Translations under genes and position numbers: made by a program
NCBI GenBank assembly: GCA_041477795.1
Contig: JBGOUY010000002.1
Location: 1-37,782, forward strand
DNA: 37,782 nucleotides
Reading direction: 5' to 3'
Source: a bacterium
GTDB taxonomy: Bacteria; SAR324; JACQKK01
Part shown: positions 15,413 through 30,461 of the stretch, one piece after another
How the letters are laid out: every line of letters begins with the position of its first letter
Position numbering within the stretch: the first letter of the stretch is position 1
Notes under the pieces: generated by a model
What the model saw: only the letters and a program-made list of their open reading frames with translations
Database searches by the model: none
Told to the model about the DNA's origin: nothing

Positions 15413-15470
15413 GGGCGAGCCAGGGGAGAGGGTGCGCGACGGCGCTGTGACGGCACGGTGCCGCGCCGGC

Positions 15471-15857
15471 TTAGCTGCGGTCCTGCGCCAGGTCCGCGTG
15501 GCCTCGCCCCAGGTGGCGCGGCAGAGCGGCAACGAGCACGAGGCCCACGGCCAGATCGAACGCACCCGAGGCGGCCAGCCCGAGGCCGAGAGCCTGGGTG
15601 AAGCTGAACGTAAATTCCGTCACGCCCAGCACGGCCAGCGTCCAGCCCGCCCAGTAGACAATGGCGCCTCGCGCTGACAGGTCGCGGGCGCCCAGCACCA
15701 GGGCTATGCCCAGGAACATCGACAGCAACCCCAGCGCCTCGGTCCAGAAAACGCTAGCGGGGGTGCGGACATAGAAGGCATTCAGCAGGCGCGGGAAAAA
15801 GAGCAGGATCCCGCCAGCGATGTAGATCCAGCCCACCCAGAACACGAAGCCTTTCAT
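15471..15857 (-). CDS. Small integral membrane protein, about 4 TM segments, family not recognised (128 aa)
   Basis: A strong SD (AGGAGGGAG) lies upstream of the ATG at 15857. The protein has four hydrophobic segments and a composition unlike shadow ORFs. Confidence 0.65.
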   Translation of the reverse strand: MKGFVFWVGWIYIAGGILLFFPRLLNAFYVRTPASVFWTEALGLLSMFLGIALVLGARDLSARGAIVYWAGWTLAVLGVTEFTFSFTQALGLGLAASGAFDLAVGLVLVAALPRHLGRGHADLAQDRS

Positions 15858-16198: not shown

Positions 16199-17287
16199 AT
16201 GGCAGCAACCCTGAAAAGGAACGTCCTCATCCTCAATGGCGACGGCATCGGCCCCGAAGTGACCCGCCAGGGCGCCAAGGTGCTGCGCGTGATGGCCGCC
16301 AAGGCCGGCATCGCGCTCAAGCTGGAGGAGGGCCTGATCGGCGCCGCCGCGCTGGAGGCCACCGGCAAGCCGCTGCCCGAGGAGACCTTCGCCAAGGCCA
16401 AGGCCAGCGACGCGATCCTCTTCGGCGCCGTGGGCGACCCGCGCTACGACAAGGCCGGCTCCACCGAGCGCCCCGGGCGCGGCCTGCTCACCCTGCGCAA
16501 GGAACTGCAGCTCTACGCGAACCTGCGGCCGGTCAAGGTCTTCGCCGCCACCATCGACGCCTCGCCGCTCAAGCGCGAGCGCATCGAGGGCGTGGACCTG
16601 ATGATCGTGCGCGAGCTGACCGGCGACATCTACTTCGGCGAGCCGCGCGGGCGGCGCGAGGAGGCGGGCCAGAAGTTCGCCATCAACACGATGATCTACA
16701 CCGACAAGGAGATCGAGCGCATCGTGCGCTTCTCCTTCGAGCTGGCCCGCAAGCGCCGCCGCAAGCTGACCTCCGTGGACAAGGGCAACGTGCTGGAGGT
16801 GAGCGCGTTCTGGCGCGAGATCGCCGGGCAGGTGGCCCAGGACTTCAAGGACGTCGCCTTCAACTCGCTCTACGTGGACAACGCGGCGAATCAGATCATC
16901 CGCGACCCGCGCCAGTTCGACACGATGGTGACGGGCAACCTGTTCGGCGACATCCTCAGCGACGCCGCCGCGAACCTGGCCGGCTCGCTGGGCATGCTGC
17001 CCTCGGCCAGCCTGGGCCCGCGCAACGCGCTCTACGAGCCCTGCCACGGCTCCGCGCCGGACATCGCCGGGCGCGACAGCGCCAACCCGGTGGCCTCCAT
17101 CCTCTCGGTGGGCATGCTGTTCCGCCACACCTTCGGCCGGCCGGACGCCGACGCGGCCATCGAGCGCTCCGTGGAAGCGGTGCTGGAGGAGGTGCGCACG
17201 GCGGACATCATGGCTCCCGGCAAGCGCCAGGTGGGCTGCACCGAGATGGGCGACCGCATCGCCGCGCACCTGGAAGCGGCGGCGTAG
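16199..17287 (+). CDS. leuB: 3-isopropylmalate dehydrogenase family (isocitrate/isopropylmalate DH superfamily), 362 aa
   Basis: LNGDGIGPEV, LLTLRKELQLYANLRP, IVRELTGDIYFGEP, NLFGDILSDAAANLAGSLGMLPSASL, EPCHGSAPDIAG. No leuC or leuD is present in the window, so tartrate or D-malate DH specificity cannot be excluded. Confidence 0.8.
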   Translation: MAATLKRNVLILNGDGIGPEVTRQGAKVLRVMAAKAGIALKLEEGLIGAAALEATGKPLPEETFAKAKASDAILFGAVGDPRYDKAGSTERPGRGLLTLRKELQLYANLRPVKVFAATIDASPLKRERIEGVDLMIVRELTGDIYFGEPRGRREEAGQKFAINTMIYTDKEIERIVRFSFELARKRRRKLTSVDKGNVLEVSAFWREIAGQVAQDFKDVAFNSLYVDNAANQIIRDPRQFDTMVTGNLFGDILSDAAANLAGSLGMLPSASLGPRNALYEPCHGSAPDIAGRDSANPVASILSVGMLFRHTFGRPDADAAIERSVEAVLEEVRTADIMAPGKRQVGCTEMGDRIAAHLEAAA

Positions 17288-17552: not shown

Positions 17553-18311
17553 GTGCCCGCACCCCGCCGCCCGACCCGCCACGGCCTGCCTGGAGTCCGT
17601 CCCATCGCCGCGACCCGACCGGAGAATCGCCGCCAGGCCCTGCTGGAGGCCGCCGCGCGCCGCTTTCTGCAACGGGGCTATGCCGCCGCCTCCCTGCGCG
17701 AGATCGCCGCGGACGTGGGCATGCAGGTCGGCTCGATCTACTACCACTTCCCCTCCAAGGCCGAGCTGCGCGCGGCGGTGCACGAGGAGGGGCTGCGCCG
17801 CATCCGCGCGGCCGTGACGGCCGCGCTGGCCGTGCCCGGCACGCCCTGGGAGCGGCTCGAAGCGGCCTGCGTGGCGCACCTGCGCGTGCTGCTGGAAGGC
17901 GGGCACTTCTTCCAGGCGGTGATGCGGGAGATGCCGCGCTCCCACGAGCCGGGCTGGCAGCGCCTCATCGCCGCGCGGGACGCCTACGAGGCGATCTTCG
18001 CCGGCTTGCTGGACGAGCTGGCGCTGCCGCCGCAGGTGGAGCGGCACGAGCTGCGCCTGCTGCTGCTGGGCGCGCTGAACTGGACGCACACCTGGTACCG
18101 CCCCGGCGGGCAAGGGCCGGCGGGCATCGCCCGGCACTTCCTGCAGGTGCTGCGCCGGGGGCTGGAGTCGCCGGCGGGCTGGGCTGGCGGCGACGCCGTG
18201 CAGGGCCCAGTGCAGGGCACCGTGCAGGGCCCAGTGCAGAGCGCCGCGGAAGGCACTGTGCGCCGCGCCCGCGGCCTGGCCCGCCCGGCCGCGCGGAGGG
18301 CCCGCCATTGA
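17553..18311 (+). CDS. TetR/AcrR-family transcriptional regulator (about 252 aa)
   Basis: HTH region RRQALLEAAARRFLQRGYAAASLREIAADVGMQVGSIYYHFPSKAEL. There is no in-frame ATG before the HTH, so GTG 17553 is chosen. The first possible start, TTG 17460, lies inside the repeat element. The start is uncertain. Confidence 0.75.
   Translation: MPAPRRPTRHGLPGVRPIAATRPENRRQALLEAAARRFLQRGYAAASLREIAADVGMQVGSIYYHFPSKAELRAAVHEEGLRRIRAAVTAALAVPGTPWERLEAACVAHLRVLLEGGHFFQAVMREMPRSHEPGWQRLIAARDAYEAIFAGLLDELALPPQVERHELRLLLLGALNWTHTWYRPGGQGPAGIARHFLQVLRRGLESPAGWAGGDAVQGPVQGTVQGPVQSAAEGTVRRARGLARPAARRARH
18198..18245 (+). repeat. In-frame 12-nt tandem repeat x4 inside the TetR C-terminus
   Basis: GTGCAGGGCCCA GTGCAGGGCACC GTGCAGGGCCCA GTGCAGAGCGCC, encoding VQGP VQGT VQGP VQSA. 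Confidence 0.9.
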
Positions 18312-18418
18312 CAGCGCGGCTGACACCACGGCTGACCTCACCGCCGGCGCCGCGGCGCCCGCGGCGGGCCCCCTGGCGAGCGTTGACGCCCCCGTGCTGA
18401 ACGACCGCTGATCCGCCC

Positions 18419-19414
18419 ATGACGCCACCCAAGACGCCGCCCAGCGCCCGCCTCGGCCCCGAGCATCCGCAGTGGATCGCCCGCCTGCGCGCCGGCGACC
18501 GGGCCACCCTCGCCCGCGCCATCACCCTCATCGAGAACGAGGCGCCGGGCGCCCAGGCCGTGCTGCGCGCCATCTTCCCCCACACCGGGCGGGCGCAGGT
18601 GGTCGGCTTCACCGGCGCGCCGGGCGTGGGCAAGTCCACCCTCGTCAATGCCTACATCGGCGAGCTGCGCCGGCGCGGGCGTAGCGTGGGCGTGATCGCC
18701 GTCGACCCCTCCAGCCCCCTCAGCGGCGGCGCCATCCTCGGTGACCGCATCCGCATGTCCGAGCACGGCGGGGACGCCGGCGTCTTCGTGCGCTCGCTCG
18801 CCGCACGGGGTCACCTGGGCGGGCTGACCCGCATGACCGCGCGCGTCGTGGACGTGATGGACGCCGCCGGGCGGGACGTGGTGATCCTGGAGACCGTGGG
18901 CACGGGGCAGTCGGAGGTGGAGGTGGCCGAGATCGCCCACACCAAGGTCGTCATCGGCGCGCCCGGGCTGGGCGACGAGATCCAGGCCGTCAAGGCGGGC
19001 GTGCTGGAGATCGCGGACGTGCTCGTCGTTAACAAGGGCGATCATCCCCTGGTCGAGGAGACGATGCGCCTGCTGCGCGACGCGCTGCACATGTCCCGCC
19101 CCAAGCCGTGGGCCGTGCCCGTGCTGCGCACGGTGGCCACCACGGGCGAGGGCATCGCGGAACTGGCGGACGCGATCGACGCCCACGCGGCCCAGCTCGA
19201 CCCGGCCGAGCGGCGGACGGCTCCGCGCCTGCGCATGCGGCGCCTGCTGGCCGCCACGGCCGCGCGGCAGGCCCGGCGCCGCATCGAGGCGCTGCACGGG
19301 CCGGCCTTCGATGCGCTCTGCGATGCGGTGCTGCGGGGCGAGCTGGACTTCGAGGAGGCCGCCCGGCAGGCGCTCACGGCAGCTCCGGACGGCCCGCCCG
19401 AGCCGCAGCCATGA
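18419..19414 (+). CDS. meaB: Methylmalonyl-CoA-mutase-associated G-protein chaperone MeaB/ArgK family (331 aa)
   Basis: LARAITLIEN, P-loop GAPGVGKST, VIAVDPSSPLSGGAILGDRIRM, ILETVGTGQSE, VVNKGD. Confidence 0.9.
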   Translation: MTPPKTPPSARLGPEHPQWIARLRAGDRATLARAITLIENEAPGAQAVLRAIFPHTGRAQVVGFTGAPGVGKSTLVNAYIGELRRRGRSVGVIAVDPSSPLSGGAILGDRIRMSEHGGDAGVFVRSLAARGHLGGLTRMTARVVDVMDAAGRDVVILETVGTGQSEVEVAEIAHTKVVIGAPGLGDEIQAVKAGVLEIADVLVVNKGDHPLVEETMRLLRDALHMSRPKPWAVPVLRTVATTGEGIAELADAIDAHAAQLDPAERRTAPRLRMRRLLAATAARQARRRIEALHGPAFDALCDAVLRGELDFEEAARQALTAAPDGPPEPQP

Positions 19415-20031
19415 GCGCCCGCAGGACTGTCCGCCCGCACCGCGCCAAGCGCCCGGCGAGCGCTCCAGCCGCCGGCACCCGCGCGCAGCGGCTGGCAGAG
19501 CTGGCCCCGCGCGATGCCTGGGCGCGGCAGATGGGCGCCCGGCTGGTCGCGGGCGGGCGCGGCGGAGCCGGGTCCGTCACGCTGCGCCTGCGCGTCACGG
19601 AGGCCCACACGAACTTCTACGGCTTCTGCCACGGCGGCGTGATCTTCACCCTGGCCGACTCCGCCTTCGGGCTGGCCTGCAACGCCGCGGGGGCGGTCAC
19701 CGTGGCCCTGGACGCCCACATCGCCTTCACCCGGGCCGTGCGTGCGGGCGAGGAGCTGATCGCCACGGCCCGCGAGCTGGCCCGCACGCGCCGCACGGGC
19801 AGCTACCGCGTCGAGGTGCGCACGGGGGACGGCCAGCGCGTCGCGCACTTCCTCGGCACGGCCTACGTGCCTGGCGAGGCCGGCGCGACCGGCGCTGCCG
19901 CCCCGGCCGGCCCGGCAGCGCCCGCCGCGCCGCGCCCGCCGCGCCAGGGGCGCTCGCCGCGAGCCCCGCGCACGCCACGCATGCCTCGCACGCCGCGCAA
20001 GGTTCGCAGCCGGCCCGCAGCGGAGCGCTGA
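19411..20031 (+). CDS. PaaI/hotdog-fold acyl-CoA thioesterase with Arg/Pro-rich N- and C-terminal extensions (206 aa)
   Basis: The ATG overlaps the meaB stop (ATGA). The core NFYGFCHGGVIFTLADSAFGLACNA...TGSYRVEV is typical of PaaI-type thioesterases. The tail ...PRPPRQGRSPRAPRTPRMPRTPRKVRSRPAAER is low complexity. Confidence 0.72.
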   Translation: MSARRTVRPHRAKRPASAPAAGTRAQRLAELAPRDAWARQMGARLVAGGRGGAGSVTLRLRVTEAHTNFYGFCHGGVIFTLADSAFGLACNAAGAVTVALDAHIAFTRAVRAGEELIATARELARTRRTGSYRVEVRTGDGQRVAHFLGTAYVPGEAGATGAAAPAGPAAPAAPRPPRQGRSPRAPRTPRMPRTPRKVRSRPAAER

Positions 20032-20032
20032 G

Positions 20033-20968
20033 ATGGAGCTGACGCTGGCCACGGGCGACTATGCCCACACGCGGGCGCTGGCGGCCTGCCTTGCCGAACG
20101 CGCGCCGGGGCTCGCGCTGCGGCACGAGATCGACCGGCCCGTGCGCATCTTCGCACGCGCGCTGGGCGCCGACCGGCCCTACGCCGCCGCGGAGATGTCC
20201 CTCGCCACCAGCTACGTGCTGGCCGACGCGAGCGACCGGCGCTTCGTGGCGCTGCCGGTCTTTCCCTCGCGCATGTTCCGCCACTCGGCGTTCTACGTTG
20301 CGGGCGCCAGCGCGCGGCCCGAACAGCTCGCCGGCGCGCGCATCGGCGTGCAGCGCTACGGCATGACGGCCGCCGTGTGGGCGCGCGAGCTGCTGCAGGA
20401 CGGCTACGGCATCGCGCCGGAGCGGATGACGTGGTGGATCGCCGAGCCCCAGTTCTTCCAGCCCCGCGGCATCGCGCTGAACGTGGCGGCCGGACCGGAC
20501 GCGCTGGAGCGCATGCTGCTGGCCGGCGAGCTGGACTGCCTGTTCTCCGTGGACGAGCCCGCCGCGTTCCGCAGCGGGCGCGTGCGGCGCCTGTTCCCGG
20601 ACTTCGCCGCGGCCGAGCGCGAACGCCATGCGCGCACCGGCATCTTCCCCATCATGCACACGGTGCTGCTGCAGCGCGCCCTCCTCGAGCGCGAGCCGAC
20701 GCTGCCCGCCGCGCTCCTGGCGGGCTTCGAGGCGGCCAAGCGCATCGCGCAGGACTGGATCCGCGACACCGACCACTCCTCGCTGCCCATCCCCCTGCAG
20801 CACGGCTGGAGCCGCGAGATGGAAGCGCGCTTCGGCGCCGACCCGTGGCCCTATGGCCTCGCCGCCAACCGCCCCGTGCTCGAACGCTTCGGCGCCCTCA
20901 TGCACGAGCAGGGACTCACCCGGCGCCAACTGGCGCCCGCGGACGTGTTCCTCGACCTGGACCCGTAA
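20033..20968 (+). CDS. PhtD-like protein (4,5-dihydroxyphthalate decarboxylase family; periplasmic-binding-protein-like fold), 311 aa
   Basis: The ATG lies 1 nt after the thioesterase stop. Motifs I recall from this family are present: AEMSLATSY, LPVFPSRMFRHSAFYV, GIFPIMHTVLL, DPWPYGLAANR, HEQGL. Confidence 0.65.
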   Translation: MELTLATGDYAHTRALAACLAERAPGLALRHEIDRPVRIFARALGADRPYAAAEMSLATSYVLADASDRRFVALPVFPSRMFRHSAFYVAGASARPEQLAGARIGVQRYGMTAAVWARELLQDGYGIAPERMTWWIAEPQFFQPRGIALNVAAGPDALERMLLAGELDCLFSVDEPAAFRSGRVRRLFPDFAAAERERHARTGIFPIMHTVLLQRALLEREPTLPAALLAGFEAAKRIAQDWIRDTDHSSLPIPLQHGWSREMEARFGADPWPYGLAANRPVLERFGALMHEQGLTRRQLAPADVFLDLDP

Positions 20969-20979
20969 GCCCGCACCGT

Positions 20980-21012
20980 GGCCGCTGCGGGGGCGCTGCC
21001 CCCGCAGCGGCC
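20980..21012 (+). terminator. Terminator-like hairpin after the PhtD-like gene (no U-tract)
   Basis: Perfect 14-bp stem GGCCGCTGCGGGGG / CCCCCGCAGCGGCC with the 5-nt loop CGCTG, 12 nt after the stop. No T-run follows it. Confidence 0.4.
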
Positions 21013-21140
21013 CCGCAAGGGAGCGAGCCCCCTTGACCCCTATTGCATTCAGCAACTGTGCGGCTGCAACGCAGCCGCACACGTCCATAAGGGGTGCGCG
21101 AGGGGGCCTGCTCCCTCGCAAGATGTGGTCTTGCCGCAAC
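21013..21140. repeat. Nested inverted-repeat element between convergent genes
   Basis: An imperfect long inverted repeat (GCAAGGGAGCGAGCCCCCTT ... AAGGGGTGCGCGAGGGGGCCTGCTCCCTCGCAAG) encloses a perfect 11-bp hairpin TGTGCGGCTGC-AAC-GCAGCCGCACA (21057..21081). Confidence 0.55.
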
Positions 21141-21144
21141 TTGA

Positions 21145-22338
21145 TCAGGCCACGCGTTCCAGCAGCACGGCCGTGCCCAGGCCGCTGCCGGCGGGCACAG
21201 TGGCCCCGCCCCGCCGTCCGCCGCGCTGTTGCAGGGCATGGGCCAGGTGCAGCGTGATGCGCAGGCCGGACATGCCCACCGGATGCCCCATCGCCACCCC
21301 GCCGCCGTCCACGTTCAGCCGCTCGCGGGGCCACTTGCCCATGCGCTCGCAGGCCAGCAGTTGCACGGCGAAGCCCTCGTTGCACTCGATCAGGTCCAGG
21401 TCGTCCACGCGCAGCCCGGCGGACTGGAGCGCGGCGTCCAGCGCCGTGACGCACGAGTAGCCCATCAGCGTCGGGTCGCAGCCCACCTGCGCCGTGCCGG
21501 GCAGCAGGATGCGCGCCAGGGGCGTCAGCCCCAGGCGGGCCAGCCCGCGCTCGTTGCAGACCAGCGCCGCGGCGGCGCCGTCGTTGATGGGCGAGGCGTT
21601 GCCGGCCGTGACGGAGCCGCCCGGCTTGACGGGCGCCAGGCGCGCCAGCGCTTCCAGCGAGGCGTCGGCGCGCGGGCTCTCGTCGCGCTCGAGCACCAGC
21701 GAGCCGCCCCGGCTGCGCGGCACCTCGATGGGCACGAGCTCCCCGGCCAGCCGCCCCGCCTCCTGCGCCGCAATGGCGCGCGCGTGGGAGACGACGGCGT
21801 AGGCGTCCATCTCCGCACGGGCAAAGCCGTCCACGCGGGCATGGTGCTCGGCCACGTCCACCATGTACCAGGGATCGCCCCACATCTTGCTGCCGGCCAG
21901 CGTGCACTCCTTGATGGTGTCGATGAACTCGCCGTGCGCCAGGCGCAGGCCCCAGCGCGCGCCGGGCACCATGTGCGGCGCGTTGCTCATGGACTCCAGG
22001 CCCAGCGCCAGCACGCAGTCCACCTCGCCCAGCGCCACCTGCTGCGCGGCCAGGATCAGCGCCATCATGCCCGAGCAGCACTGCATGTTGACGGTGAAGG
22101 CGGGAGCAGTGGAGGGCACGCCGATGCGCGTGGCGACGATGCGCGCCGGGTTGGACTCCGTCATGTCCTGCAGCACCATGCCGGCGATGACGCGCTGCAC
22201 GTCCGCCGGCTGGAGGCCCAGGCGCTCCAGCAGCGCGGCCGCCACCGTGGTGCCGAATTCCGTGGCGCGCAGGGGCAGCAATGCCCCGCCGAAGCGCCCG
22301 ATGGGGCTGCGCACTCCCGAGACCAGATAGGCTTGCAT
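21145..22338 (-). CDS. Acetyl-CoA C-acyltransferase (thiolase), 397 aa
   Basis: MQAYLVSGVRSPIGRFGG, NMQCCSGMMA (active-site Cys), NEGFA, NVDGGGVAMGHPVGMSG. The start at MQAYLV has GGGAG upstream. Confidence 0.87.
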   Translation of the reverse strand: MQAYLVSGVRSPIGRFGGALLPLRATEFGTTVAAALLERLGLQPADVQRVIAGMVLQDMTESNPARIVATRIGVPSTAPAFTVNMQCCSGMMALILAAQQVALGEVDCVLALGLESMSNAPHMVPGARWGLRLAHGEFIDTIKECTLAGSKMWGDPWYMVDVAEHHARVDGFARAEMDAYAVVSHARAIAAQEAGRLAGELVPIEVPRSRGGSLVLERDESPRADASLEALARLAPVKPGGSVTAGNASPINDGAAAALVCNERGLARLGLTPLARILLPGTAQVGCDPTLMGYSCVTALDAALQSAGLRVDDLDLIECNEGFAVQLLACERMGKWPRERLNVDGGGVAMGHPVGMSGLRITLHLAHALQQRGGRRGGATVPAGSGLGTAVLLERVA

Positions 22339-22378
22339 GGCGATGCTCCCGGCATTCCCCGCGTGGCCGACGTCCCCC

Positions 22379-22398
22379 AACCGAACGATCGTTCGGTT
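22379..22398. promoter_or_regulatory. Perfect 20-bp palindromic operator candidate AACCGAACGATCGTTCGGTT
   Basis: It lies 41 nt upstream of the thiolase ATG and 3 nt downstream of a predicted -10. It shares the half-sites ACCGAAC/GTTCGGT with the site at 23184..23201. Confidence 0.65.
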
Positions 22399-22401
22399 AC
22401 G

Positions 22402-22430
22402 ACTCTACCCAGCCGCGGGCGCCGGTGCAA
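22402..22430 (-). promoter_or_regulatory. Sigma70-like promoter for the thiolase gene
   Basis: On the minus strand this reads TTGCAC (22430..22425), a 17-nt spacer, then TAGAGT (22407..22402). The palindrome follows immediately. Confidence 0.5.
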
Positions 22431-22443
22431 CCACCGCGGGCGG

Positions 22444-23034
22444 CTACGTGGCGGGCGCGCTGACGCGCTTGGCCAGCAGGATGTCCGGCCGGCCCGGGCC
22501 GTTGGCGTCCGGGATGACGCCCACGACCACGAAGCCCAGCCGCCGGTAGAACTCCAGCGGGTGCGGCGCGCGCGCTGTGATGCGCTGCAGCGCGCCGAGC
22601 GGATCGGCGAAGAGGTCCTCGCCGGCCAGGGAGGTCAGGCCCGCCTCGTCGTCCGCCCCCACCCACAGCGTGCGGCCGCCCTGCTCGTAGACGAGGGCTT
22701 CCAGGTCGAGCACCAGCGCCCGGCCCACGCCGCGCCCGCGCTGGGCGGGGTCGACCACGAGCGGCTGCAGCTCCCAGGTCTCGCCGTAGTACTGCGTGAG
22801 GCCGCCCACCCAGCCCAGCAGCTTGCCGGAGTCGTCCAGCGCGCCGCGCGCCAGGTTGGGCGGCTCCAACAGCACGCGCACTTCGCCCTCGGCCACCAGC
22901 ACATTGGGCCAGGCGCGCGGGGCGAGGTCGCGGAAGCCGTCCACGAGGAGCTGCGCCGCCTCGCGCAGCACCGGGCGCGGCTGGCCGGCCAGGTCCACCA
23001 GCCGGAACGGGGAGGAGTGCCGTCGGGTTGCCAT
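22444..23034 (-). CDS. GNAT-family N-acetyltransferase, AAC(6')-I-like C-terminal pattern (196 aa)
   Basis: The acetyl-CoA site is QRGRGVGRAL. The C-terminus HPLEFYRRLGFVVVGVIPDANGPGRPDILLAKRV resembles what I recall of AAC(6')-I-type enzymes. The start at MATRR has GGAG 6 nt upstream. ATG 23046 is an alternative. Confidence 0.78.
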   Translation of the reverse strand: MATRRHSSPFRLVDLAGQPRPVLREAAQLLVDGFRDLAPRAWPNVLVAEGEVRVLLEPPNLARGALDDSGKLLGWVGGLTQYYGETWELQPLVVDPAQRGRGVGRALVLDLEALVYEQGGRTLWVGADDEAGLTSLAGEDLFADPLGALQRITARAPHPLEFYRRLGFVVVGVIPDANGPGRPDILLAKRVSAPAT

Positions 23035-23153
23035 GTCCGACTCCATAGCACGGTCGCAACGGCGGCGCAGCCAGCGCAGGGACCTGGGCAGGCCCGGGCG
23101 TCGAGAGCGGGCGGCTTCGGCGATCGGGTGGTTTAGCGGCAACGCGCCGCGTC

Positions 23154-23182
23154 TTGACGGCTGTGGCGGCCATTGCTAGGTT
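23154..23182 (+). promoter_or_regulatory. Sigma70-like promoter for the mutase operon
   Basis: TTGACG (23154..23159), a 17-nt spacer, then TAGGTT (23177..23182). The palindrome begins 1 nt downstream. Confidence 0.5.
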
Positions 23183-23183
23183 T

Positions 23184-23201
23184 ACCGAACAACCGTTCGG
23201 T
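23184..23201. promoter_or_regulatory. Palindromic operator candidate ACCGAACAACCGTTCGGT
   Basis: It has perfect 7-bp arms with a 4-nt spacer, the same half-sites as 22379..22398, and the same position relative to the -10. It lies 65 nt upstream of the mutase ATG. Confidence 0.62.
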
Positions 23202-23265
23202 GACGGCCGCTGGCCGCCCACCCACCCATCGCCTTCGCGCCGCGAGACCCGCTCCGGAGCCGCCG

Positions 23266-24993
23266 ATGTTCGACGAGGACACGCTGCGCCGCTCCCGCGA
23301 AGCCGAGGCGGAATGGCGCACCCAGTACCGCCGCATCGTGGAGCGCTTCGGGGACAAGGCCCCGGCCCGCGCCACGGCGCCCGCCACCCACGGCGGGATT
23401 CCCCTCAAGAACGCGTACTTCCCCCACGACGTCGCGGGCCAGGACTTCTCCGCCATCGGCGCGCCGGGCCAGTACCCCTTCACGCGGGGCAACCTGGCGG
23501 CGCAGTACCAGCTCATGCACTGGGCCAACCAGCCGGTGATCGGCTACGGCCTGCCCGAGCACACGCGCGAGCGCATGGACCTGCTGGCGGCGCAGGGCAT
23601 GATGGGCTACTTCGGCCAGCGCTTCTACAACCTGGTCTACGACCTGGTCTCCCACGAGGGGCTGGACCCCGATCACCCGGCGGCGCGGGGGCGCATCGGG
23701 CAGTGCGGCATGGCCGTGTATTCCGTGGAGGACATGGAGCGGCTTTTCCACGACATGGATCTCACCCAGATGAACGTGATCCACATCACGTACTACCAGG
23801 TGATCCCCGCGCTGGCGCAGTACATCGCCCTGGCCGGGCGGCGCGGCATCGCGCCGGGCGACCTGCGCGGCAACTCCATGAACTGGTACCACCAGAGCGC
23901 CTACGTGGGCATGAGCGCCTTCCCGCCCGAGCAGGGGCACAAGCTGGCCGTGGAGCTGCTGGCCTACTGCGGGGCGCACATGCCGCGCTGGAACACGACC
24001 AACTTCTTCGGCTACGGCGTGGAGGAGGCGGGCGGCACGGCGGTGCAGGAGATCGGCCTGATGCTGGCCTACGGCATCGAGCTGGTGCGCTCCTGCCAGC
24101 GCGCCGGGCTGGCGCCGGACCAGGTGCTGCCGCGCTTCGGCTTCCAGATCGCGCAGGCCAGCGACTTCTTCGAGCAGGTGTGCAAGGTGCGCGCGTTGCG
24201 CCGCATCTGGGCCACCACCATGGCCGAGCACTTCGCCGCCAAGGATCCGCGCTCGCTGCACGTGCGCATCCACACGCACACCTCCGGCGTGGATCTGATG
24301 GCGCAGCAGCCGCTCGTGAACCTGATCCGCACGACCCTGCACGCCTTCGGCGCGGCCCTGGCCGGCACGCAGGCGATGGAGGTCTCCGCCTACGACGAGG
24401 CGCTCGCCATCCCCACCGAGCAGGCGGCCACGCTGGCCCTGCGCGTGCAGCAGGTGGTGCAGGAGGAGACCAATCTCACCACCGTGTCCGATCCGCTCGC
24501 CGGGTCGTACTACGTGGAGGCGCTCACGCAGCAGCTCGCCGAGGCGGCGCTGGCGCTGGTGGAGCAGATCGAGGCGCGCGGGGGCTACATCGCCGCGCAG
24601 AAGAGCGGCTGGCTGCGCGGCCAGGTGGAGACCTCCGCGGAACGCTGGCGCGAAGCGGTCAACTCGGGCCAGCGCCGCGTGGTGGGCCTCAACTGCTACC
24701 AGACCGACGAGCCGCCCCAGGGCAACACCTTCAAGGTCGACCCGGAAGTGGAGCGCATCGCCGTCGAGCGCGTGCAGGCCCTGCGCGCCCGCCGCGATGC
24801 CACCCGCCATGCCCAAGCCATGGCGGCCTTCGATGCGGTGGTGACGGACTTCGCTACGCGCGACGTCGCGGCGCTGGGCGAAAGCCGGCTCATGCCCGCC
24901 GCCATCGCCGCGGCGCAGGCCGATGCCACCACCGGCGAGCTGATGGGCGTGCTCAAGCAGCGCCTCGGCTGGCGCGCCCCGCACGAGACGTGA
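23266..24993 (+). CDS. Coenzyme-B12-dependent acyl-CoA mutase family, large (substrate-binding TIM-barrel) subunit, divergent (575 aa)
   Basis: GGAG lies 6 nt upstream of the ATG. Family motifs are present: PGQYPFTRG, DFFEQVCKVRALRRIWA, RIHTHTSGVDL, NLIRTTLHAFGAALAGTQA, YDEALAIPTEQAATLALRVQQV, DPLAGSYYVEALT. The N-terminal barrel motifs are non-canonical. Confidence 0.85.
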   Translation: MFDEDTLRRSREAEAEWRTQYRRIVERFGDKAPARATAPATHGGIPLKNAYFPHDVAGQDFSAIGAPGQYPFTRGNLAAQYQLMHWANQPVIGYGLPEHTRERMDLLAAQGMMGYFGQRFYNLVYDLVSHEGLDPDHPAARGRIGQCGMAVYSVEDMERLFHDMDLTQMNVIHITYYQVIPALAQYIALAGRRGIAPGDLRGNSMNWYHQSAYVGMSAFPPEQGHKLAVELLAYCGAHMPRWNTTNFFGYGVEEAGGTAVQEIGLMLAYGIELVRSCQRAGLAPDQVLPRFGFQIAQASDFFEQVCKVRALRRIWATTMAEHFAAKDPRSLHVRIHTHTSGVDLMAQQPLVNLIRTTLHAFGAALAGTQAMEVSAYDEALAIPTEQAATLALRVQQVVQEETNLTTVSDPLAGSYYVEALTQQLAEAALALVEQIEARGGYIAAQKSGWLRGQVETSAERWREAVNSGQRRVVGLNCYQTDEPPQGNTFKVDPEVERIAVERVQALRARRDATRHAQAMAAFDAVVTDFATRDVAALGESRLMPAAIAAAQADATTGELMGVLKQRLGWRAPHET

Positions 24994-25269
24994 CACGCTG
25001 CCGAAGCAACCGCGTGTGGGGGAGCACGCTCCCCCACCCCTGCGGGACTGCAAACGGGAAGCCGGGCGGGGTTCCGCACGAGAAATGACGCCGGGTCTCC
25101 CCGGCGACTGTGTCAGGGGCTCCGCCCCTGACCACCCCGCCAAGGGCCAATGGCCCTTGGAACCCGTATTTGCGGCAGTGGCTGGCTTGCCAGCCACTGC
25201 CGCCCAAAGAGGGGGTGCGGGGGAACGTGTTCCCCCGAATGCTTCTCTCGTTACAGGTGACCGAGCGCC
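24994..25269. repeat. Array of six near-perfect hairpins between the mutase large- and small-subunit genes
   Basis: The stems lie at 25017..25036, 25089..25106, 25112..25132 (9 bp), 25140..25160 (9 bp), 25172..25203 (14-15 bp) and 25219..25236. Loops are 3-4 nt. Confidence 0.8.
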
Positions 25270-25680
25270 ATGAGCGGACCGATCCGGGTGTTGCTGGCCA
25301 AGCCCACGCAGGACTGCCACGACCGCGGCGTGCGCTACGTGGCGCGCAAGTTCCGCGATGCGGGCTTCGAGGTGATCTTCACCAACTTCCTGCTGGCGGG
25401 CGAGGTGGTGCACACGGCGCTGGAGGAGGACGTGAACGTGATCGGCATCTCGTCCTCCTCGGGCGGGCACATGCCGGTGTTCGAGGACCTGCTGGCGGGC
25501 ATGCGCGAGCAGGGGCTGGACGACGTGATGGTGCTGGGCGGGGGCGTGATTCCGCCGGAGGATGCGGAGCGCCTGCGGGCCTGGGGCGTGAGCGCCATCT
25601 TCGGCCCCGGCACCAGCGCGGAGGACGCCATCGCCCTGATTCGCGCGCGCGTGCAGGCCGCGCCGGGCGGGCGCCCATGA
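25270..25680 (+). CDS. Cobalamin-binding small subunit of acyl-CoA mutase (136 aa)
   Basis: The B12-binding DxHxxG motif is present (QDCHDRG), followed by GISSSSGGH and VMVLGGGVIP. The size is typical of IcmB/HcmB-type subunits. Confidence 0.9.
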   Translation: MSGPIRVLLAKPTQDCHDRGVRYVARKFRDAGFEVIFTNFLLAGEVVHTALEEDVNVIGISSSSGGHMPVFEDLLAGMREQGLDDVMVLGGGVIPPEDAERLRAWGVSAIFGPGTSAEDAIALIRARVQAAPGGRP

Positions 25681-26666
25681 GCGCCGGCACGGGCACGGCG
25701 GCGACGGGAGCGGCACGCTTCCGCCGCATCGCCATCCTGGGCGGCGGCGGGCTGATGGGCCACGGCATCGCCCTGGCCTGCCTGCAGGCGAGCCCGGCGG
25801 AGGTGGTGCTCGTCTCGCGCCGGGCCGAATCGCTGGCGCAGGGCCGCACGCTTGTGGAGAGCGGGCCCTTCGGGTTCGCCAAGGCGGTGCAGCGCGGCAA
25901 GCTGAGCCAGGCGCAGGCACAGGAGATGCTGAGCCGGCTGCGCGGCACGACCGATTACGGCGAGGGCCTGGCCGGCTGCGATCTCGTCTTCGAGTCCGTG
26001 CCGGAGGTCGTCGCGCTCAAGCAGGAGACCCTGCGCCTGGCCGAGCGGCACGCGCCGGCGCACGCCGTCTTCGCCAGCAACACCTCCTCCATCCTCATCT
26101 CCGAGCTGGCGGCGCAGCTCGAGCGCCCGGGGCGGCTGGTGGGCGCGCACTGGTTCTATCCCTCCAACGTGATGCCGCTGGTGGAGGTCGCGCGCAGCGA
26201 GCTGAGCGAACCCGCGGCGCTGGACGCCGTGGTGGACTACCTGCGCGCGCTGGGCAAGAAGCCGGTGGTGGTCAAGGATTCGCCCGGCTTCTTCATGACG
26301 CGCTTCATCAACAACTTCCTGGCCGAGGCGATGCGCCTGGTGGAGCTGGGCATCGCCGGGCCGGCGGAAGTGGACGAGATGGTGCGCACGGGCCTGGGCT
26401 GGCCGATGGGCGTGTTCGAGCTGCTGGACGATACGGCGAGCTTCGACTCGTTCTACCACGCGCAGGAATACCTCTTCGCCACCTGCGGCGAGCGCTACGC
26501 GATTCCCCCCCTCGCGCGCAAGGTCTTCATGGCCGGCTATCGCGGCGCCCCGGCCCTCAAGCCGGGCAGCCGGGGCGGCTGGTACGACTTCCTGGGCGCC
26601 GCCCGCCCACCGCGATCCCTCCCGCCCGGCAAAGCCGGGACGCCCGACAAGAAAGGCGGGCGCTGA
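25677..26666 (+). CDS. 3-hydroxyacyl-CoA dehydrogenase family (Hbd-like), 329 aa
   Basis: The ATG overlaps the small-subunit stop (ATGA). Rossmann motif IAILGGGGLMGHGIA, then FASNTSS, GAHWFYPSNVMPLVEV, VKDSPGFFMTRF. Confidence 0.85.
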   Translation: MSAGTGTAATGAARFRRIAILGGGGLMGHGIALACLQASPAEVVLVSRRAESLAQGRTLVESGPFGFAKAVQRGKLSQAQAQEMLSRLRGTTDYGEGLAGCDLVFESVPEVVALKQETLRLAERHAPAHAVFASNTSSILISELAAQLERPGRLVGAHWFYPSNVMPLVEVARSELSEPAALDAVVDYLRALGKKPVVVKDSPGFFMTRFINNFLAEAMRLVELGIAGPAEVDEMVRTGLGWPMGVFELLDDTASFDSFYHAQEYLFATCGERYAIPPLARKVFMAGYRGAPALKPGSRGGWYDFLGAARPPRSLPPGKAGTPDKKGGR

Positions 26667-27033
26667 AGGCGCAGCCGTCCCGCCGTACGCCGTGCGGAGC
26701 CCCTGCTCCGCCCGCCGCCGGCCCGGCCGAGCGGCCCCGGCCGCAGCGCGCCCGATTCCGCTGCACGGGCGACGCTCCTTTTCCCCGCCACTCAACATCC
26801 GTTCGCACCCAAATTAAGGGGGTTGAGCCGAATTATCATTGCTGGGCTGAATGCCCGGTGATAGGAATGCAAGCGGGGTGGGCGGCCCCGTCCTTGAGTT
26901 ATTCTTGGCGCCGGCGTCCGGCGCGTGGCCACCGCTCTGGCGGTCGCGCGGCCTGACGCAAGCGGTGCCTGTTACCGGATTCTTGTGGCGTCGGCGACCG
27001 ACGGTGCGCTGCACCCGGTGCGCAGCCTTCCCC

Positions 27034-28431
27034 ATGCCATTCCCCTCGTCGCTCGGTCGCACCCTTGCCGCGCTGGTCGCGTTCGTCGCGCTCCTCGCGC
27101 CGGCCACGCCTTCGTTGCGGGCGCAGCCGGCCGGCGCAGGAGCCGGTGCGGCGGGCGCCGGCAAGGGCGCTCCGGCCAAGGAGCTGATCGCGGTGCTGGA
27201 CTTCGACATCGTGGGCGGCAGCAAGGCCGAGGCCAGCGCCGTCACGGACCGGCTGCGCGAGGAGATGCTCAAGACCGGCCAGGTGACCCTGGTCGACCGC
27301 AGCCAGATCGAAGCCGTCCTCAACGAGCAGGCGCTGCAGCAGGCCTGCACGTCCTCCGAGTGCGCCGTGCAGGTGGGGCGCATCCTGGGCGTGCGGCGCA
27401 TGGTGGCCGGCAAGGTCACCAAGATCTCCGACACACTCTGGCAGATCTCCGCGCAGGTGGTGGACGTGGAGACGACCGAGACGCTGCGCGCCGAGACGGT
27501 GACGCACGAGGGGCGCTTTCTCGATCTGCTGCTTTCCGGCGTGAGCGAGCTGGCGGGCAAGCTGGCCGGCGCCGCCGTCATCCCCTCCGGCCCCGCCGCA
27601 CGCGGCCGCGCCGCCGTGCTGACCGAGCCCAGCGGGGCGGAGCTGATCCTGGACGGCCAGCCCATCCCGGAGAAGTCCGACGCGCTGCTGGATCAGCTCC
27701 CGGCCGGCTCCCATAGCATCGTCGCCACCCGGGGCAACCTGACGGCCACGCAGAACTTCACGGTCAATCCCGGCTCCCTCACGCGCGTGGAGCTCAAGCT
27801 GGTGCCCAAGCAGGCCAGCCTGCACGTCAACAGCACGCCGCTCAACGCCACCGTGCGGCTGGACGGGCGGGACATCGGGCGCACACCGCTCGTGCTGGAC
27901 GTGCGGCCCGGCGAGCACCGCCTGGAGGTTTCGCGCGAGGGCTACCTGACCGCCACGGGCAGCGTCGCCGTCACGCTGGATACGCCCACCACGGTGAGCG
28001 TGACGCTGGAGGAGAAGGACCTGGCCATGCACGACTACGACCGGCAGCGGACGTTGTGGAACTTCAACCGCTGGACCTCGCTCTACGGCGGCGGACTGAT
28101 GGTGGTGCTGGGGTACCTGGAAGCGCGCAAGGTCGCCGAATCCAACGCGCGCCAGGACACGCTGCAGGCCCAGGCCCAGGCCGCCAACAACGTGCAGACC
28201 CGCCAGTCGCTGGTGAACCAGATCGCCCTGGAGCGCGACCTGGGCCAGGCCTACAGCAACGCCTCGAAGGTCGGCTACATCACCGGCGCGGCGATGCTGG
28301 GACTCTACGCGTGGCTGCAGACGCACGAGCCCGAGCGCCCTCCGGTGGCCCGCGATTCCACGATCCGCGTCTCCGTGCTGCCCTTCGGCGCGGCGGGGGC
28401 GCCGGCCCTGGCCCTGCAATGGAGCTGGTAG
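27034..28431 (+). CDS. Exported protein with a CsgG/LpoB-like N-domain, two PEGA domains and a hydrophobic C-terminal region (465 aa)
   Basis: Signal peptide MPFPSSLGRTLAALVAFVALLAPATPSLRA. N-domain IAVLDFDIVGG...LVDRSQIEAVLNEQALQQ...VGRILGVRRMVAGKV. PEGA-like units (EPSGAELILDG; VRLDGRDIGRTPL...GEHRLEVSREGY). Two hydrophobic segments. The protein ends LALQWSW. Confidence 0.75.
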   Translation: MPFPSSLGRTLAALVAFVALLAPATPSLRAQPAGAGAGAAGAGKGAPAKELIAVLDFDIVGGSKAEASAVTDRLREEMLKTGQVTLVDRSQIEAVLNEQALQQACTSSECAVQVGRILGVRRMVAGKVTKISDTLWQISAQVVDVETTETLRAETVTHEGRFLDLLLSGVSELAGKLAGAAVIPSGPAARGRAAVLTEPSGAELILDGQPIPEKSDALLDQLPAGSHSIVATRGNLTATQNFTVNPGSLTRVELKLVPKQASLHVNSTPLNATVRLDGRDIGRTPLVLDVRPGEHRLEVSREGYLTATGSVAVTLDTPTTVSVTLEEKDLAMHDYDRQRTLWNFNRWTSLYGGGLMVVLGYLEARKVAESNARQDTLQAQAQAANNVQTRQSLVNQIALERDLGQAYSNASKVGYITGAAMLGLYAWLQTHEPERPPVARDSTIRVSVLPFGAAGAPALALQWSW

Positions 28432-30089: not shown

Positions 30090-30160
30090 CCGAGGGCCTT
30101 GGCTGCGCTGGACTTGCTGCCGCTTCTATGGTATACAAATGTATCCCTTCCGGGTCCTTG

Positions 30161-30202
30161 GCCGACTGCCGGGGCCGGCCGCCGGCTGCCCCGGCAGTCG
30201 GC
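30161..30202 (+). terminator. Terminator-like hairpin after the RCC1 gene (no U-tract)
   Basis: Perfect 14-bp stem GCCGACTGCCGGGG / CCCCGGCAGTCGGC with a 14-nt loop. It lies 72 nt after the stop. Confidence 0.35.
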
Positions 30203-30461
30203 GGCCGGCCCCACAGACGCGGCGCGTGGAAATTTCCAAACGAACCCAGGATGCCGCAAGGCCCTGAGCGGGCGGGGAATCCGGCATGCCAGGGCCGCGC
30301 GGCCGCCGCCTCCCCGGTGTGGGTGGGACGCGTCCATGCGGCCGGCCGCCGGCACCTCCGCGCCCGCTCGACAGGCCCGCCGATCTGGGCGATCCTGGGC
30401 CGATTGCCCGGCGGCCGGGGGAACGGCCCGCCGTGGCCTCGTCGCAGCGGTCGCCCCAGCG

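Follow-up and report, generated by a model that had tools for sequence, protein, structure and literature searches.

Which acyl-CoA is rearranged by the B12-dependent mutase encoded at this SAR324 locus, and into which route is the product passed? The window (the whole stretch of DNA analysed, 37,782 nucleotides) was examined by third-position GC frame analysis, Pfam, and NCBIfam, and all nine genes named in an earlier sequence-only reading were confirmed (Table 1). The junctions described there are equally real: the nucleotide sequence shows MeaB and PaaI overlapping at ATGA and a single base separating PaaI from the gene at 20033, and by coordinates 25677 and 25680 MutS and Hbd share four bases; the small-subunit DxHxxG motif reads QDCHDRG in translation. 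The open reading frame at 20033–20968 has no family match in Pfam or NCBIfam; its homology to 4,5-dihydroxyphthalate decarboxylase (PDB 9jp7, E = 3e-43) makes "PhtD-like" the right name. The PaaI thioesterase carries a C-terminal tail rich in Pro, Ala, and Arg. The thiolase gene is divergent from the mutase operon, the GNAT gene lying between it and the mutase genes; best PDB matches are acetoacetyl-CoA thiolases for the thiolase and L-3-hydroxyacyl-CoA dehydrogenases for Hbd. In its resemblance to C4-specific enzymes, the thiolase would fit a small mutase substrate better than a bulky one, which counts against the bulkier acyl group proposed below.

Table 1 Features of the mutase locus, with positions in the window and supporting matches.
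Feature	Position	Strand	Evidence or remark
TetR-family repressor	17553..18311	+	Pfam TetR_N + TetR_C_24; start (GTG at 17553) uncertain
MeaB, G-protein chaperone for B12 loading and repair	18419..19414	+	PF03308 304 bits; TIGR00750 322 bits
PaaI/4HBT-type hotdog thioesterase	19411..20031	+	4HBT 56 bits; TIGR02286 104 bits (below its cutoff)
4,5-Dihydroxyphthalate-decarboxylase-like (PhtD-like) protein	20033..20968	+	PDB 9jp7_A, E = 3e-43, residues 2–306
Thiolase, short-chain (acetoacetyl-CoA-type)	21145..22380	-	Thiolase_N/C; best PDB 4n45, 294 bits
Operator 1, perfect palindrome CGAACGATCGTTCG	22382..22395	.	adjoins thiolase start
GNAT acetyltransferase, AAC(6')-like	22444..23142	-	matches below curated cutoffs (Pfam, NCBIfam)
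Operator 2, CGAACAACCGTTCG	23186..23199	.	67 nt upstream of MutL start
Acyl-CoA mutase large (substrate-binding) subunit, MutL	23266..24993	+	PF01642 487 bits, model positions 2–511 of 512
MutL-MutS spacer, 276 nt	24994..25269	+	six perfect GC-rich hairpins
B12-binding small subunit, MutS	25270..25680	+	PF02310 78 bits; TIGR00640 135 bits; DxHxxG = DCHDRG
L-(S)-3-hydroxyacyl-CoA dehydrogenase, Hbd/HADH type	25677..26666	+	3HCDH_N/3HCDH

MutL is predicted to adopt the full acyl-CoA-mutase fold (AF2 pLDDT 94.4), its model superposing at TM 0.90–0.94 on HCM (4r3u), 0.86–0.90 on MCM, and 0.65 on MCM beta chains; HCM is the top PDB match both in sequence (315 bits) and in fold. Identity to HCM, MCM, and ECM is about 28–35% (HCM 34–35%; MCM 31–35%; ECM, MeaA, 27–29% and most distant), against 43% between HCM and MCM; ICM-type representatives reach at most 37%, and IcmF covers the barrel only in part in profile and structure comparison. 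Nesting within a characterised clade had been named as the outcome that would overturn a distinct specificity; by identity, tree, and residue comparison, MutL falls outside the MCM, HCM, ECM, and ICM-type sequences that made up the comparison set. Its own clade is tight (64–96% identity), comprises at least 121 non-redundant members from at least five phyla, and is monophyletic on a long stem; members, like those of the two closest neighbouring clusters (50% and 41% identical), bear only generic names. Genomes returned by a scan with clade-specific peptides included no characterised HCM or RCM host and no Bacillota genome. MutL belongs to a widespread, strongly conserved, so far unstudied branch of B12 acyl-CoA mutases, one among many uncharacterised mutase clades.

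The substrate pocket was mapped through HMMER alignments of MutL to HCM 4r3u and to MCM (HCM residue numbers are MCM numbers plus one or two). All motifs quoted for MutL were found, and the aberrant ones align as supposed: RQ[Y/I]AGFG is replaced by NQPVIGYG and GT[IV]Q.DILKE by GNSMNWYHQ, and the apparent insertion amounts to six residues before the FD strand. The barrel divergence, placed by the sequence-only reading in the N-terminal part, is present there yet not confined to it: GYH(244) has become GYG, Q330 His, and the LHTN strand MEVS, and with the loss of the conserved His244/Gln197 pair the departure exceeds what had been described. At the specificity positions MutL is non-canonical as claimed, with Val for P. 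shermanii Tyr89, loss of Arg207, and Val for both Ile90 and Asp117 of A. tertiaricarbonis; further changes are S114N, T195N, and Q197M (MCM numbering), and Tyr243 is retained. The key pocket residues (V91, I92, N122, V124, I174, Y176, N203, M205, W207, Y208, H209, F248, Y250, G251, G292, Q294, H338, E372, V373, S374) are invariant or nearly so among the 121 members, and 63 positions conserved in HCM, MCM, and ECM are fixed to other residues in the clade, which keeps 57 universally conserved columns.

Judged by these alignments, nearly all residues that normally touch the substrate are replaced in the clade, and because of this MutL probably rearranges an acyl-CoA handled by no characterised mutase. 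The clade is under selection rather than decayed, since identity stays at 64–96% over at least five phyla, the pocket residues are near-invariant, and the universal columns are kept. Uncharacterised mutase clusters commonly have non-canonical pockets, which makes the case of MutL less exceptional. In MCM, the migrating thioester carbonyl is hydrogen-bonded by Gln197 and His244; with neither residue present, MutL must depart from the MCM mechanism in its details, or else it could be only weakly active, a point against a functional mutase with a rebuilt pocket.

Linkage was followed through 56 related loci. The conserved core is a divergent thiolase plus MutL-MutS-Hbd-TetR-MeaB, with orthologs of MutS at 46 loci, thiolase at 37 (59–77% identity), Hbd at 33 (63–78%), TetR at 29 (42–68%; mostly between Hbd and MeaB), and MeaB at 26; at about 10 loci neither thiolase nor Hbd is close by. 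The expected linkage of the mutase to MeaB, Hbd, thiolase, and TetR is thus upheld, and that to the thioesterase and PhtD-like genes is not: PaaI, the PhtD-like gene, and GNAT each occur at 0 of the 56 loci, so that the "tightly coupled trio" falls as a feature of the system and these three are window-specific accessory additions to the SAR324 genome. Over 56 sequences (55 loci and the window), ECH is linked in 17, a ligase in 13, ACAD in 4, and carboxylase genes in 3–4. Absence of a CoA ligase from the window was correctly noted, but elsewhere ligases do form part of the operon or of the regulon; Streptomyces has all in one operon, thiolase-TetR-ligase-ECH-MutL-MutS-Hbd-MBL-MeaB. The linked ligases are nearest to fatty-acyl/feruloyl-CoA synthetases (FadD/feruloyl-type), and 2-HIBA-CoA ligase is absent from their top 60 PDB matches. 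Accessory genes vary by lineage (biotin carboxylase and carboxyltransferase in actinomycetes; peptidases or PLP enzymes in some MAGs), an inconsistency that speaks, as do the loci lacking thiolase and Hbd, against the pathway proposed below.

Only two operator sites occur in the window, 0.25 being expected, and they are placed before the thiolase and the mutase genes; co-regulation of the two, as had been proposed, is therefore likely. The operator is conserved across phyla in thiolase-MutL spacers and stands in other genomes also upstream of a ligase-hydratase operon. Operator 2 lies just downstream of TTGACG-17 nt-TAGGTT (hexamers picked by eye), where a strict sigma-70 scan called no promoter; other alphaproteobacterial loci carry CTTGAC at an equal distance. 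The Thermus PaaR box is CNAACGNNCGTTNG (PMC6651687), and operator CGAACGATCGTTCG agrees with it at every specified position. Although box and general kind of TetR are shared with Thermus thermophilus PaaR, a phenylacetate-gene repressor, the targets here are the mutase, Hbd, and thiolase set rather than paa genes, and the best solved matches of the TetR are other TetRs (4mxm, DarR, Thermus 3vpr, and FadR 8sv6 among them). The protein resembles acyl-CoA-sensing TetRs. In one relative of the locus (L003) the TetR gene is displaced and has the box about 34 nt ahead of it, which suggests autoregulation.

From the fold, family membership, conserved pocket substitutions, synteny, and operator, we infer a reaction, its direction, a substrate class, and an effector. 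A FadD/feruloyl-type CoA ligase, unlinked in the window and encoded in the operon or regulon elsewhere, would activate a branched carboxylic acid; the mutase would shift the thioester carbon (1,2-shift), so that a branched acyl-CoA blocked for beta-oxidation becomes either a straight 3-hydroxyacyl-CoA or an enoyl-CoA, from which the associated hydratase makes one; the L-specific dehydrogenase would oxidise the 3-hydroxyacyl-CoA, and the short-chain thiolase would split the product into acetyl-CoA and a second acyl-CoA. The PaaR-like TetR would repress the thiolase and mutase promoters through the shared palindromic operator, an acyl-CoA being the probable release signal. Funnelling of the mutase product into an Hbd/thiolase route, suggested earlier, is the best reading, and the operon logic parallels the 2-hydroxyisobutyrate pathway. 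The substrate would most likely differ from those of characterised mutases; because the pocket is apolar, aromatic, and enlarged and the ligases are of FadD/feruloyl type, the comparison points to a branched acyl group bulkier or more hydrophobic than 2-hydroxyisobutyryl. Taken whole (a functional two-subunit AdoCbl mutase with its own MeaB, of an uncharacterised clade, with rebuilt pocket and the above pathway), this explanation may be right or wrong with about equal probability.

A third, independently evolved 2-hydroxyisobutyryl-CoA/3-hydroxybutyryl-CoA mutase lineage with HCM/RCM function, delivering 3-hydroxybutyryl-CoA to Hbd and the acetoacetyl-CoA thiolase, is rather unlikely, though it has points in its favour. 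Known 2-HIBA clusters hold mutase large and small subunits, MeaB, 3HB-CoA dehydrogenase, thiolase, and ligase (PMC13188929), the same core set as here save that the ligase lies outside the window (see also PMC7176365); HcmAB of Aquincola tertiaricarbonis (4r3u) likewise has a large barrel subunit and a small B12 subunit with DxHxxG, HCM is the top match, thiolase and dehydrogenase are of the fitting types, and ACAD linkage is rare. RcmAB (Kyrpidia tusciae, Bacillus massiliosenegalensis) was compared indirectly, by residue spacing; on this basis RCM I95, V122, V172, H174, Y252, and F296 correspond to MutL V91, V124, I174, Y176, Y250, and Q294, four of these six first-shell residues being identical or conservative; in both proteins HCM Asp117 is replaced by Val and MCM Thr166 by a hydrophobic residue. 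Yet His174 and Phe296 of RCM are Tyr and Gln in MutL, the clade matches the nine-residue RcmA fingerprint at 3/9 positions only, and its six-residue insertion separates it from HCM and, between the I95- and V122-equivalent positions, from RCM; the HCM residues Ile90, Asp117, and the equivalents of Gln197, His244, Gln330, and the LHTN strand are all replaced. Described hcl-hcm clusters have a GntR-type regulator (PMC7176365) where MutL-clade loci have TetR; the ligases are not HCL-type, and ECH, often linked, would have no role. An ICM/PCM-like mutase for alkyl-branched acyl-CoAs (isobutyryl/butyryl, 2-methylbutyryl/valeryl, or pivalyl/isovaleryl), feeding unlinked ACAD, ECH, Hbd, and thiolase, is distinctly unlikely: the apolar pocket (V91, I92, V124, I174, M205, W207, F248) without Arg or Asp for a polar substituent, ECH in operon or regulon, ACAD both at the Nocardioides locus and in the sister cluster of 41% identity, and an MCC/GCC-like carboxylase in actinomycete and Sphingobium sister loci, suited to 3-methyl-branched products such as isovaleryl-CoA, would agree with it, but the ICM signature (Phe 89 and Gln 207, with retention of His244 and Gln197) is missing, ICM-type sequences and IcmF match poorly as given above, and ACAD contrasts in its 4 of 56 with Hbd and thiolase at 33–37 loci.

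For a carboxylated substrate (alkylmalonyl-CoA or alkylsuccinyl-CoA; compare the ethylmalonyl-CoA, hexylmalonyl-CoA, and propionate routes), which we consider improbable, there are the biotin carboxylase and carboxyltransferase within Nocardioides, Nocardia, and Streptomyces operons, the Sphingobium sister mutase in a carboxylase/AtuA cluster, and the precedent of mutases whose substrates are long alkylmalonyl-CoAs (PMC5719088); a decarboxylase role is then conceivable for the linked ECH-family protein. The carboxylate-binding Arg207 and Tyr89 are missing, however, carboxylase genes are scarce, and ECM is the most distant reference. With MCM (P. shermanii 1req, human, M. tuberculosis) MutL shares fold, Tyr243, B12 dependence, MeaB partnership, and the 57 universal columns, but the B12 domain, fused to the large subunit in MCM, is separate here. 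Loss of the hallmark residues His244, Gln197, and Tyr89, and the existence of inactive paralogs in the family, could also mean that MutL, like the MCM beta subunit, lacks catalytic activity, or that its role is non-enzymatic (sensing, scaffolding); this is scarcely credible, as MutL is the sole large subunit of the locus, partnered by an intact B12-binding subunit and MeaB, the replacement residues are themselves invariant over at least five phyla within a clade of high identity, and the distance to MCM beta chains is much greater. The MutL-MutS spacer, with no Rfam match at E <= 0.1, differs between close relatives both in its length and in its sequence.

On the modelled structure, the mutase large subunit (MutL) is a true member of the acyl-CoA mutase fold with a rebuilt substrate pocket, and an AdoCbl-dependent rearrangement is predicted. 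MutL matches PF01642 at 487.5 bits (cutoff 22.1; model positions 2-511 of 512) and TIGR00641 at 425 bits (cutoff 303.8). The AF2 model from a diverse alignment has pLDDT 94.4 and pTM 0.93 (a model from a shallow alignment, pLDDT 66, was set aside); in Foldseek it reaches TM 0.90-0.94 to the large subunit of 2-hydroxyisobutyryl-CoA mutase (HCM, PDB 4r3u) and 0.86-0.90 to methylmalonyl-CoA mutase (MCM), at structure-based identities of 29-32%. Four attributes of an acyl-CoA mutase are present: full-length profile, TIM-barrel fold, a partner with the DxHxxG motif (MutS, the B12-binding small subunit) and a MeaB chaperone.

Because the G+C content of the window is ~72%, raw ORF lists are full of spurious frames; genes were called by third-position GC frame analysis together with Pfam and NCBIfam. 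The gene content described in the sequence-only reading was borne out by these calls, and both the ATGA overlap and the 1-nt gap can be read directly from the window sequence.

Features of the window on and around the mutase locus
Feature	Position	Strand	Remarks
Amidohydro_2 gene	14543-15619	-	LigW/ACMSD-type decarboxylase/hydratase family
Isocitrate/isopropylmalate-dehydrogenase-family gene	16199-17287	+
TetR	17553-18311	+	TetR_N + TetR_C_24
MeaB	18419-19414	+	TIGR00750 322 bits
PaaI-type thioesterase	19411-20031	+
PaaI C-terminal tail	19850-20031		low complexity
PhtD-like ORF	20033-20968	+	without Pfam/NCBIfam family; homologous to 4,5-dihydroxyphthalate decarboxylase (PDB 9jp7, E = 3e-43)
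Thiolase	21145-22380	-
Operator 1	22382-22395		adjoining thiolase start
GNAT	22444-23142	-
Operator 2	23186-23199		upstream of MutL
MutL	23266-24993	+
MutL-MutS spacer	24994-25269		276 nt
MutS	25270-25680	+	DxHxxG motif reads DCHDRG; PF02310 78 bits; TIGR00640 135 bits
3-Hydroxyacyl-CoA dehydrogenase (Hbd)	25677-26666	+
PEGA/CsgG-like gene	26851-28431
DUF5939-cyclase gene	30090-32432

The sequences of 44 clade members (relatives of MutL at 64-96% identity) were compared with those of HCM, three MCMs and one MeaA/ethylmalonyl-CoA mutase (ECM), in the literature numbering of P. shermanii anchored on the 1e1c chain, the offset being verified by the Y89 and H244A positions. There are 63 columns in which the clade is fixed on a residue other than the one shared by four or all five of the references; in 57 columns that are invariant among the references, the clade keeps the common residue. 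The altered positions take in almost all known MCM substrate contacts (MCM residue first, window MutL second): R82, M84; T85, A87; R87, Q89; Y89, V91; A90, I92; S114, N122; A116 (= HCM D117), V124; T166, I174; N168, Y176; T195, N203; Q197, M205; S241, F248; H244, G251; S285, G292; F287, Q294; Q330, H338; H364-T365-N366, E372-V373-S374; R207 is lost (Gly or gap at the aligned position). Tyr243 is retained as Y250. In the MutL model the altered residues lie within or just after the barrel beta-strands, the region where acyl-CoA mutases bind their substrates. Gln197 and His244 of MCM form a conserved pair that hydrogen-bonds the carbonyl of the migrating thioester; this pair is absent, with Met205 and Gly251 in all 121 members, across which the pocket residues vary little or not at all. 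The motif strings quoted in the sequence-only reading were all found in MutL and its non-canonical pocket stands, but the divergence is not limited to the N-terminal half, as had been claimed: altered columns reach the equivalents of H364-T365-N366.

Clade identities are 34-35% to HCM, 31-35% to MCM and 27-29% to ECM, whereas HCM and MCM share 43%. Tyr89 and Arg207 bind the substrate carboxylate in MCM, in place of which MutL has Val91 and the Gly or gap. Ile90 and Asp117, which we take to be the specificity residues of HCM (positions checked on the 4r3u sequence), are replaced by Val91 and Val124. Ruegeria MeaA, the ECM compared, and the clade fall on opposite sides of the tree.

The subunits of the (R)-specific 2-hydroxyisobutyryl-CoA mutase (RCM), RcmAB, are only distantly related to HcmAB (PMC7176365). 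Residues within ~5 Å of the acyl group in B. massiliosenegalensis RcmA are I95, V122, V172, H174, Y252 and F296 (PMC11599936 supplement), with the same spacing as HCM I90, D117, T167, N169, Y244 and F288 apart from a 3-residue insertion. Matched by this spacing, with RcmA taken from published positions only, the six fall on V91, V124, I174, Y176, Y250 and Q294 of the window protein (2 identical, 2 conservative, 2 different). A 6-residue insertion in the clade is absent from RCM, and MutL carries 3/9 of a nine-residue constant-offset RcmA fingerprint, the best of all retrieved proteins carrying 5/9. Kyrpidia, Robertmurraya, Aquincola and Desulfococcus were all missing from the results of a genome scan with clade-specific peptides, NSMNWYHQ among them. 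Compared through the listed residue positions, RCM looks like the characterised enzyme with the most similar pocket; on this indirect comparison, the clade is probably not RCM in the strict sense.

The clade is a widespread, conserved, uncharacterised acyl-CoA mutase group with its own regulon. A word-indexed search returned at least 120 non-redundant relatives (70-96% identity, generic names only) from Alphaproteobacteria, Gammaproteobacteria, Acidimicrobiia and Actinomycetes. Scanning species-representative genomes gave 54 loci, adding Pyrinomonadaceae, Polyangia and a delta-proteobacterial MAG, and including the cultured strains Microtetraspora sp. NBRC 16547, Nocardioides sp. Root140 and Nocardia australiensis (DSM 111727). 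Streptomyces sp. NPDC001292, also a cultured host, came from the protein search. Four unusual MutL motifs are practically invariant across the relatives found. In a distance tree the clade sits on a long stem beside two other uncharacterised plasmid-borne mutases, away from HCM, MCM and ECM. Exhaustive search of 1.84 billion cluster representatives placed the nearest full-length neighbours at 50% and 41% identity and all others at <=39%; the 20 nearest all bear generic names. No characterised clade member was found in literature searches, and no clade member among PLSDB plasmids (best match 41.5% identical). That match, from Sphingobium sp. WTD-1 (NZ_CP119128.1, L059 1-12894), is likewise without His244 and lies in an Atu-like cluster (AMP-ligase, carboxyltransferase, enoyl-CoA hydratase (ECH), biotin carboxylase, AtuA-family protein, two NTF2-like proteins, mutase large and small subunits, MeaB, SDR, OYE reductase), which is another uncharacterised mutase pathway.

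When 131 full-length 50%-cluster representatives (P0121-P0270) were profiled at 27 pocket positions, the signatures of canonical MCM, HCM-type (P0190) and isobutyryl-CoA mutase (ICM)-type (P0135, P0171) proteins were readily recognised, all <=38% identical to the window MutL, together with dozens of uncharacterised clusters with non-canonical residues at MCM 89, 197, 207 and 244; His244 is replaced by N, D or G in many. The two nearest clusters (P0121, P0124) have N114, N195, M197, F241, G244, Q287 and H330 in common with the clade, and both lie in beta-oxidation-type contexts. The clade is one well-populated example of a large unexplored diversity, by which the surprise is tempered and the interest is not.

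Neighbourhoods were established by tblastn with the window proteins and by de novo ORF clustering. The conserved core is a divergent thiolase followed by MutL-MutS-Hbd-TetR-MeaB; MutS was found at at least 46 loci, thiolase at at least 37, Hbd at at least 33, TetR at at least 29 and MeaB at at least 26, minimum counts given the number of short contigs. Tblastn found no PaaI, PhtD-like gene or GNAT at any related locus examined; these three genes were rejected as parts of the system and are additions in the window genome. The proposed linkage of the mutase to MeaB and Hbd is thereby upheld, that to PaaI and the PhtD-like gene withdrawn. Relaxed searches of 55 loci plus the window found ECH at 17/56, an acyl-CoA ligase at 13/56 and an acyl-CoA dehydrogenase (ACAD) at 4/56. 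The Streptomyces locus is a single operon (thiolase-TetR-ligase-ECH-MutL-MutS-Hbd-MBL hydrolase-MeaB). Linked ligases lie at L056 7629-9227 and L044 18378-19916. In the cultured actinomycetes (L037 and L038, Nocardioides sp. Root140 and Nocardia australiensis; L056, Streptomyces) the family operon is extended by carboxyltransferase, biotin carboxylase, MBL-fold hydrolase and ligase, in Nocardioides sp. Root140 also by ACAD. About ten loci have MutL-MutS with no thiolase or Hbd nearby and mixed neighbours (peptidases, PLP enzyme, PhyH, P450, ligase, ECH). Two such loci (L051 1-12862; L033 3417-12928) have MutL-MutS amid peptidases (S15/M20/M24), ligases, a PLP-dependent enzyme and a PhyH-family dioxygenase; the substrate in these lineages may perhaps derive from amino acids or peptides.

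A palindrome, ~TAACCGAACGATCGTTCGGTTA, is conserved in the thiolase-MutL spacers of 36 loci. The window has two such sites (operators 1 and 2), with 0.25 expected by chance per 37.8 kb; across loci, at <=2 mismatches, 17 sites fall in 5 kb of spacer versus ~13 in the other 553 kb. Several of the non-spacer sites are also promoter-proximal: in L003 a site lies ~34 nt upstream of a TetR gene that is displaced, in L044 one precedes a ligase-ECH operon, and in L018 one precedes a second mutase operon. The window motif fits the PaaR box of Thermus, consensus 5'-CNAACGNNCGTTNG-3' (PMC6651687), and the regulator, which has a TetR_C_24 domain, is similar to TetRs that sense acyl-CoAs or other ligands. 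There is thus good support for thiolase and mutase being co-regulated; a PaaR-like regulon, with a TetR repressor that would be released by an acyl-CoA effector, is suggested. No operator was found before the TetR-MeaB-PaaI-PhtD-like unit of the window. A strict sigma-70 scan of 22300-23300 called no promoter; TTGACG-17 nt-TAGGTT upstream of operator 2, read by eye, is a weak match only. The second operon of L018 (14902-19217, minus strand; Sneathiellales MAG), 3 kb from the family locus and preceded by the operator CGAACGATCGTTCG, encodes a TetR_C_24 regulator, a B12-binding small subunit and two distinct paralogs of the mutase large subunit (578 and 553 aa). Its products could form a heteromeric mutase belonging to the same regulon.

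There is in our view an even chance that the mutase acts on a branched acyl-CoA outside the known set, its product being cleaved by Hbd and thiolase. Hbd is of the L-specific HADH/Hbd type and the thiolase is closest to acetoacetyl-CoA thiolases; because a linked ACAD is rare, the product is suggested to lie at, or one hydration from, the 3-hydroxy level. The joint reading is tentative, if nearly even: a bulkier apolar branched acyl-CoA (e.g., one made by a FadD/feruloyl-type ligase from an acid with tertiary branching or 2-aryl/2-alkyl substitution) would be rearranged with His338, His209 and Tyr176 aiding thioester migration instead of His244 and Gln197, in a widespread TetR-controlled 'unblock then beta-oxidise' pathway of marine and soil Alphaproteobacteria, Acidimicrobiia and actinomycetes. 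The 2-hydroxyisobutyrate (2-HIBA) pathway consists of ligase, mutase, MeaB-type chaperone, 3-hydroxybutyryl-CoA dehydrogenase and thiolase (PMC13188929; PMC7176365), and the core architecture of the clade is the same. A third isofunctional HCM/RCM lineage acting on plain 2-HIBA is nevertheless unlikely: HCM Asp117 is Val in the clade, the pocket, locally enlarged by H244G and Y89V, is apolar and aromatic, and the nearest relatives of both ligases examined are fatty-acyl/feruloyl-CoA synthetases and FadD5/FadD13 rather than 2-HIBA-CoA ligase.

An alkyl mutase like ICM or pivalyl-CoA mutase is rather improbable. Phe at MCM position 89 and Gln at 207, presumably the ICM signature and seen in P0135 and P0171, are not shared by MutL, which has Val91 and, in pairwise alignments, no Gln aligned with 207; the match to the NCBIfam model of IcmF is confined to residues 247-502 and scores 154 bits versus a cutoff of 1500. 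Biotin carboxylase and carboxyltransferase genes in the actinomycete operons speak for a carboxylated substrate tied to that carboxylase, and they occur only at the Streptomyces, Nocardioides and Nocardia loci; we consider this very unlikely. That MutL is a pseudoenzyme is hardly credible and was rejected, the substituted residues being invariant and the B12 and MeaB partners intact. Repair by the mutase of a tertiary 3-hydroxy-3-methylacyl-CoA made by ECH was rejected by our own chemical reasoning, because there is no C3 hydrogen to abstract.

To our knowledge, only a handful of acyl-CoA mutase specificities have been described (methylmalonyl, isobutyryl, ethylmalonyl, 2-hydroxyisobutyryl (S and R), pivalyl, hexylmalonyl), each new one so far having opened up a metabolic route as well as a biocatalyst with which branched carbon skeletons can be built or broken down. 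The clade is highly conserved, has a clear regulon, is plentiful in metagenomes from sea and soil and occurs in cultured hosts; it could reveal a new substrate and catalytic variation because the His/Gln pair thought to assist thioester migration is absent. The dozens of clusters with non-canonical pockets indicate a chemical range of the family far wider than the characterised enzymes suggest. The cultured hosts make the question of the substrate directly testable.

Some further features of the window were recorded. No cobalamin riboswitch or other RNA was found above chance in 16-28 kb, a sub-threshold sRNA match (21098-21203) being taken as chance. The MutL-MutS spacer holds six perfect GC-rich hairpins (arms 7-15 nt), with no Rfam match at E <= 0.1; it is 35 nt in an 89%-identical relative and 249 nt, non-aligning, in an 88%-identical one, and looks like variable REP-like palindromic inserts within the operon. 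The PaaI protein ends in a ~60-residue Pro/Ala/Arg-rich tail (…PAAPRPPRQGRSPRAPRTPRMPRTPRKVRSRP…), across which the coding-frame signal is ambiguous, making its stop codon and the coupling to the following gene provisional. A DUF5939-adenylate/guanylate cyclase gene directly follows Hbd in an 89%-identical relative (L066 3420-5351); in the window it lies 3.4 kb further away, with the PEGA/CsgG-like gene between, which is further evidence of local insertions in this genome. The Amidohydro_2 and isocitrate/isopropylmalate-dehydrogenase-family genes just upstream of TetR may form, with the PhtD-like gene, an aromatic-/dicarboxylate-acid module unrelated to the mutase core.
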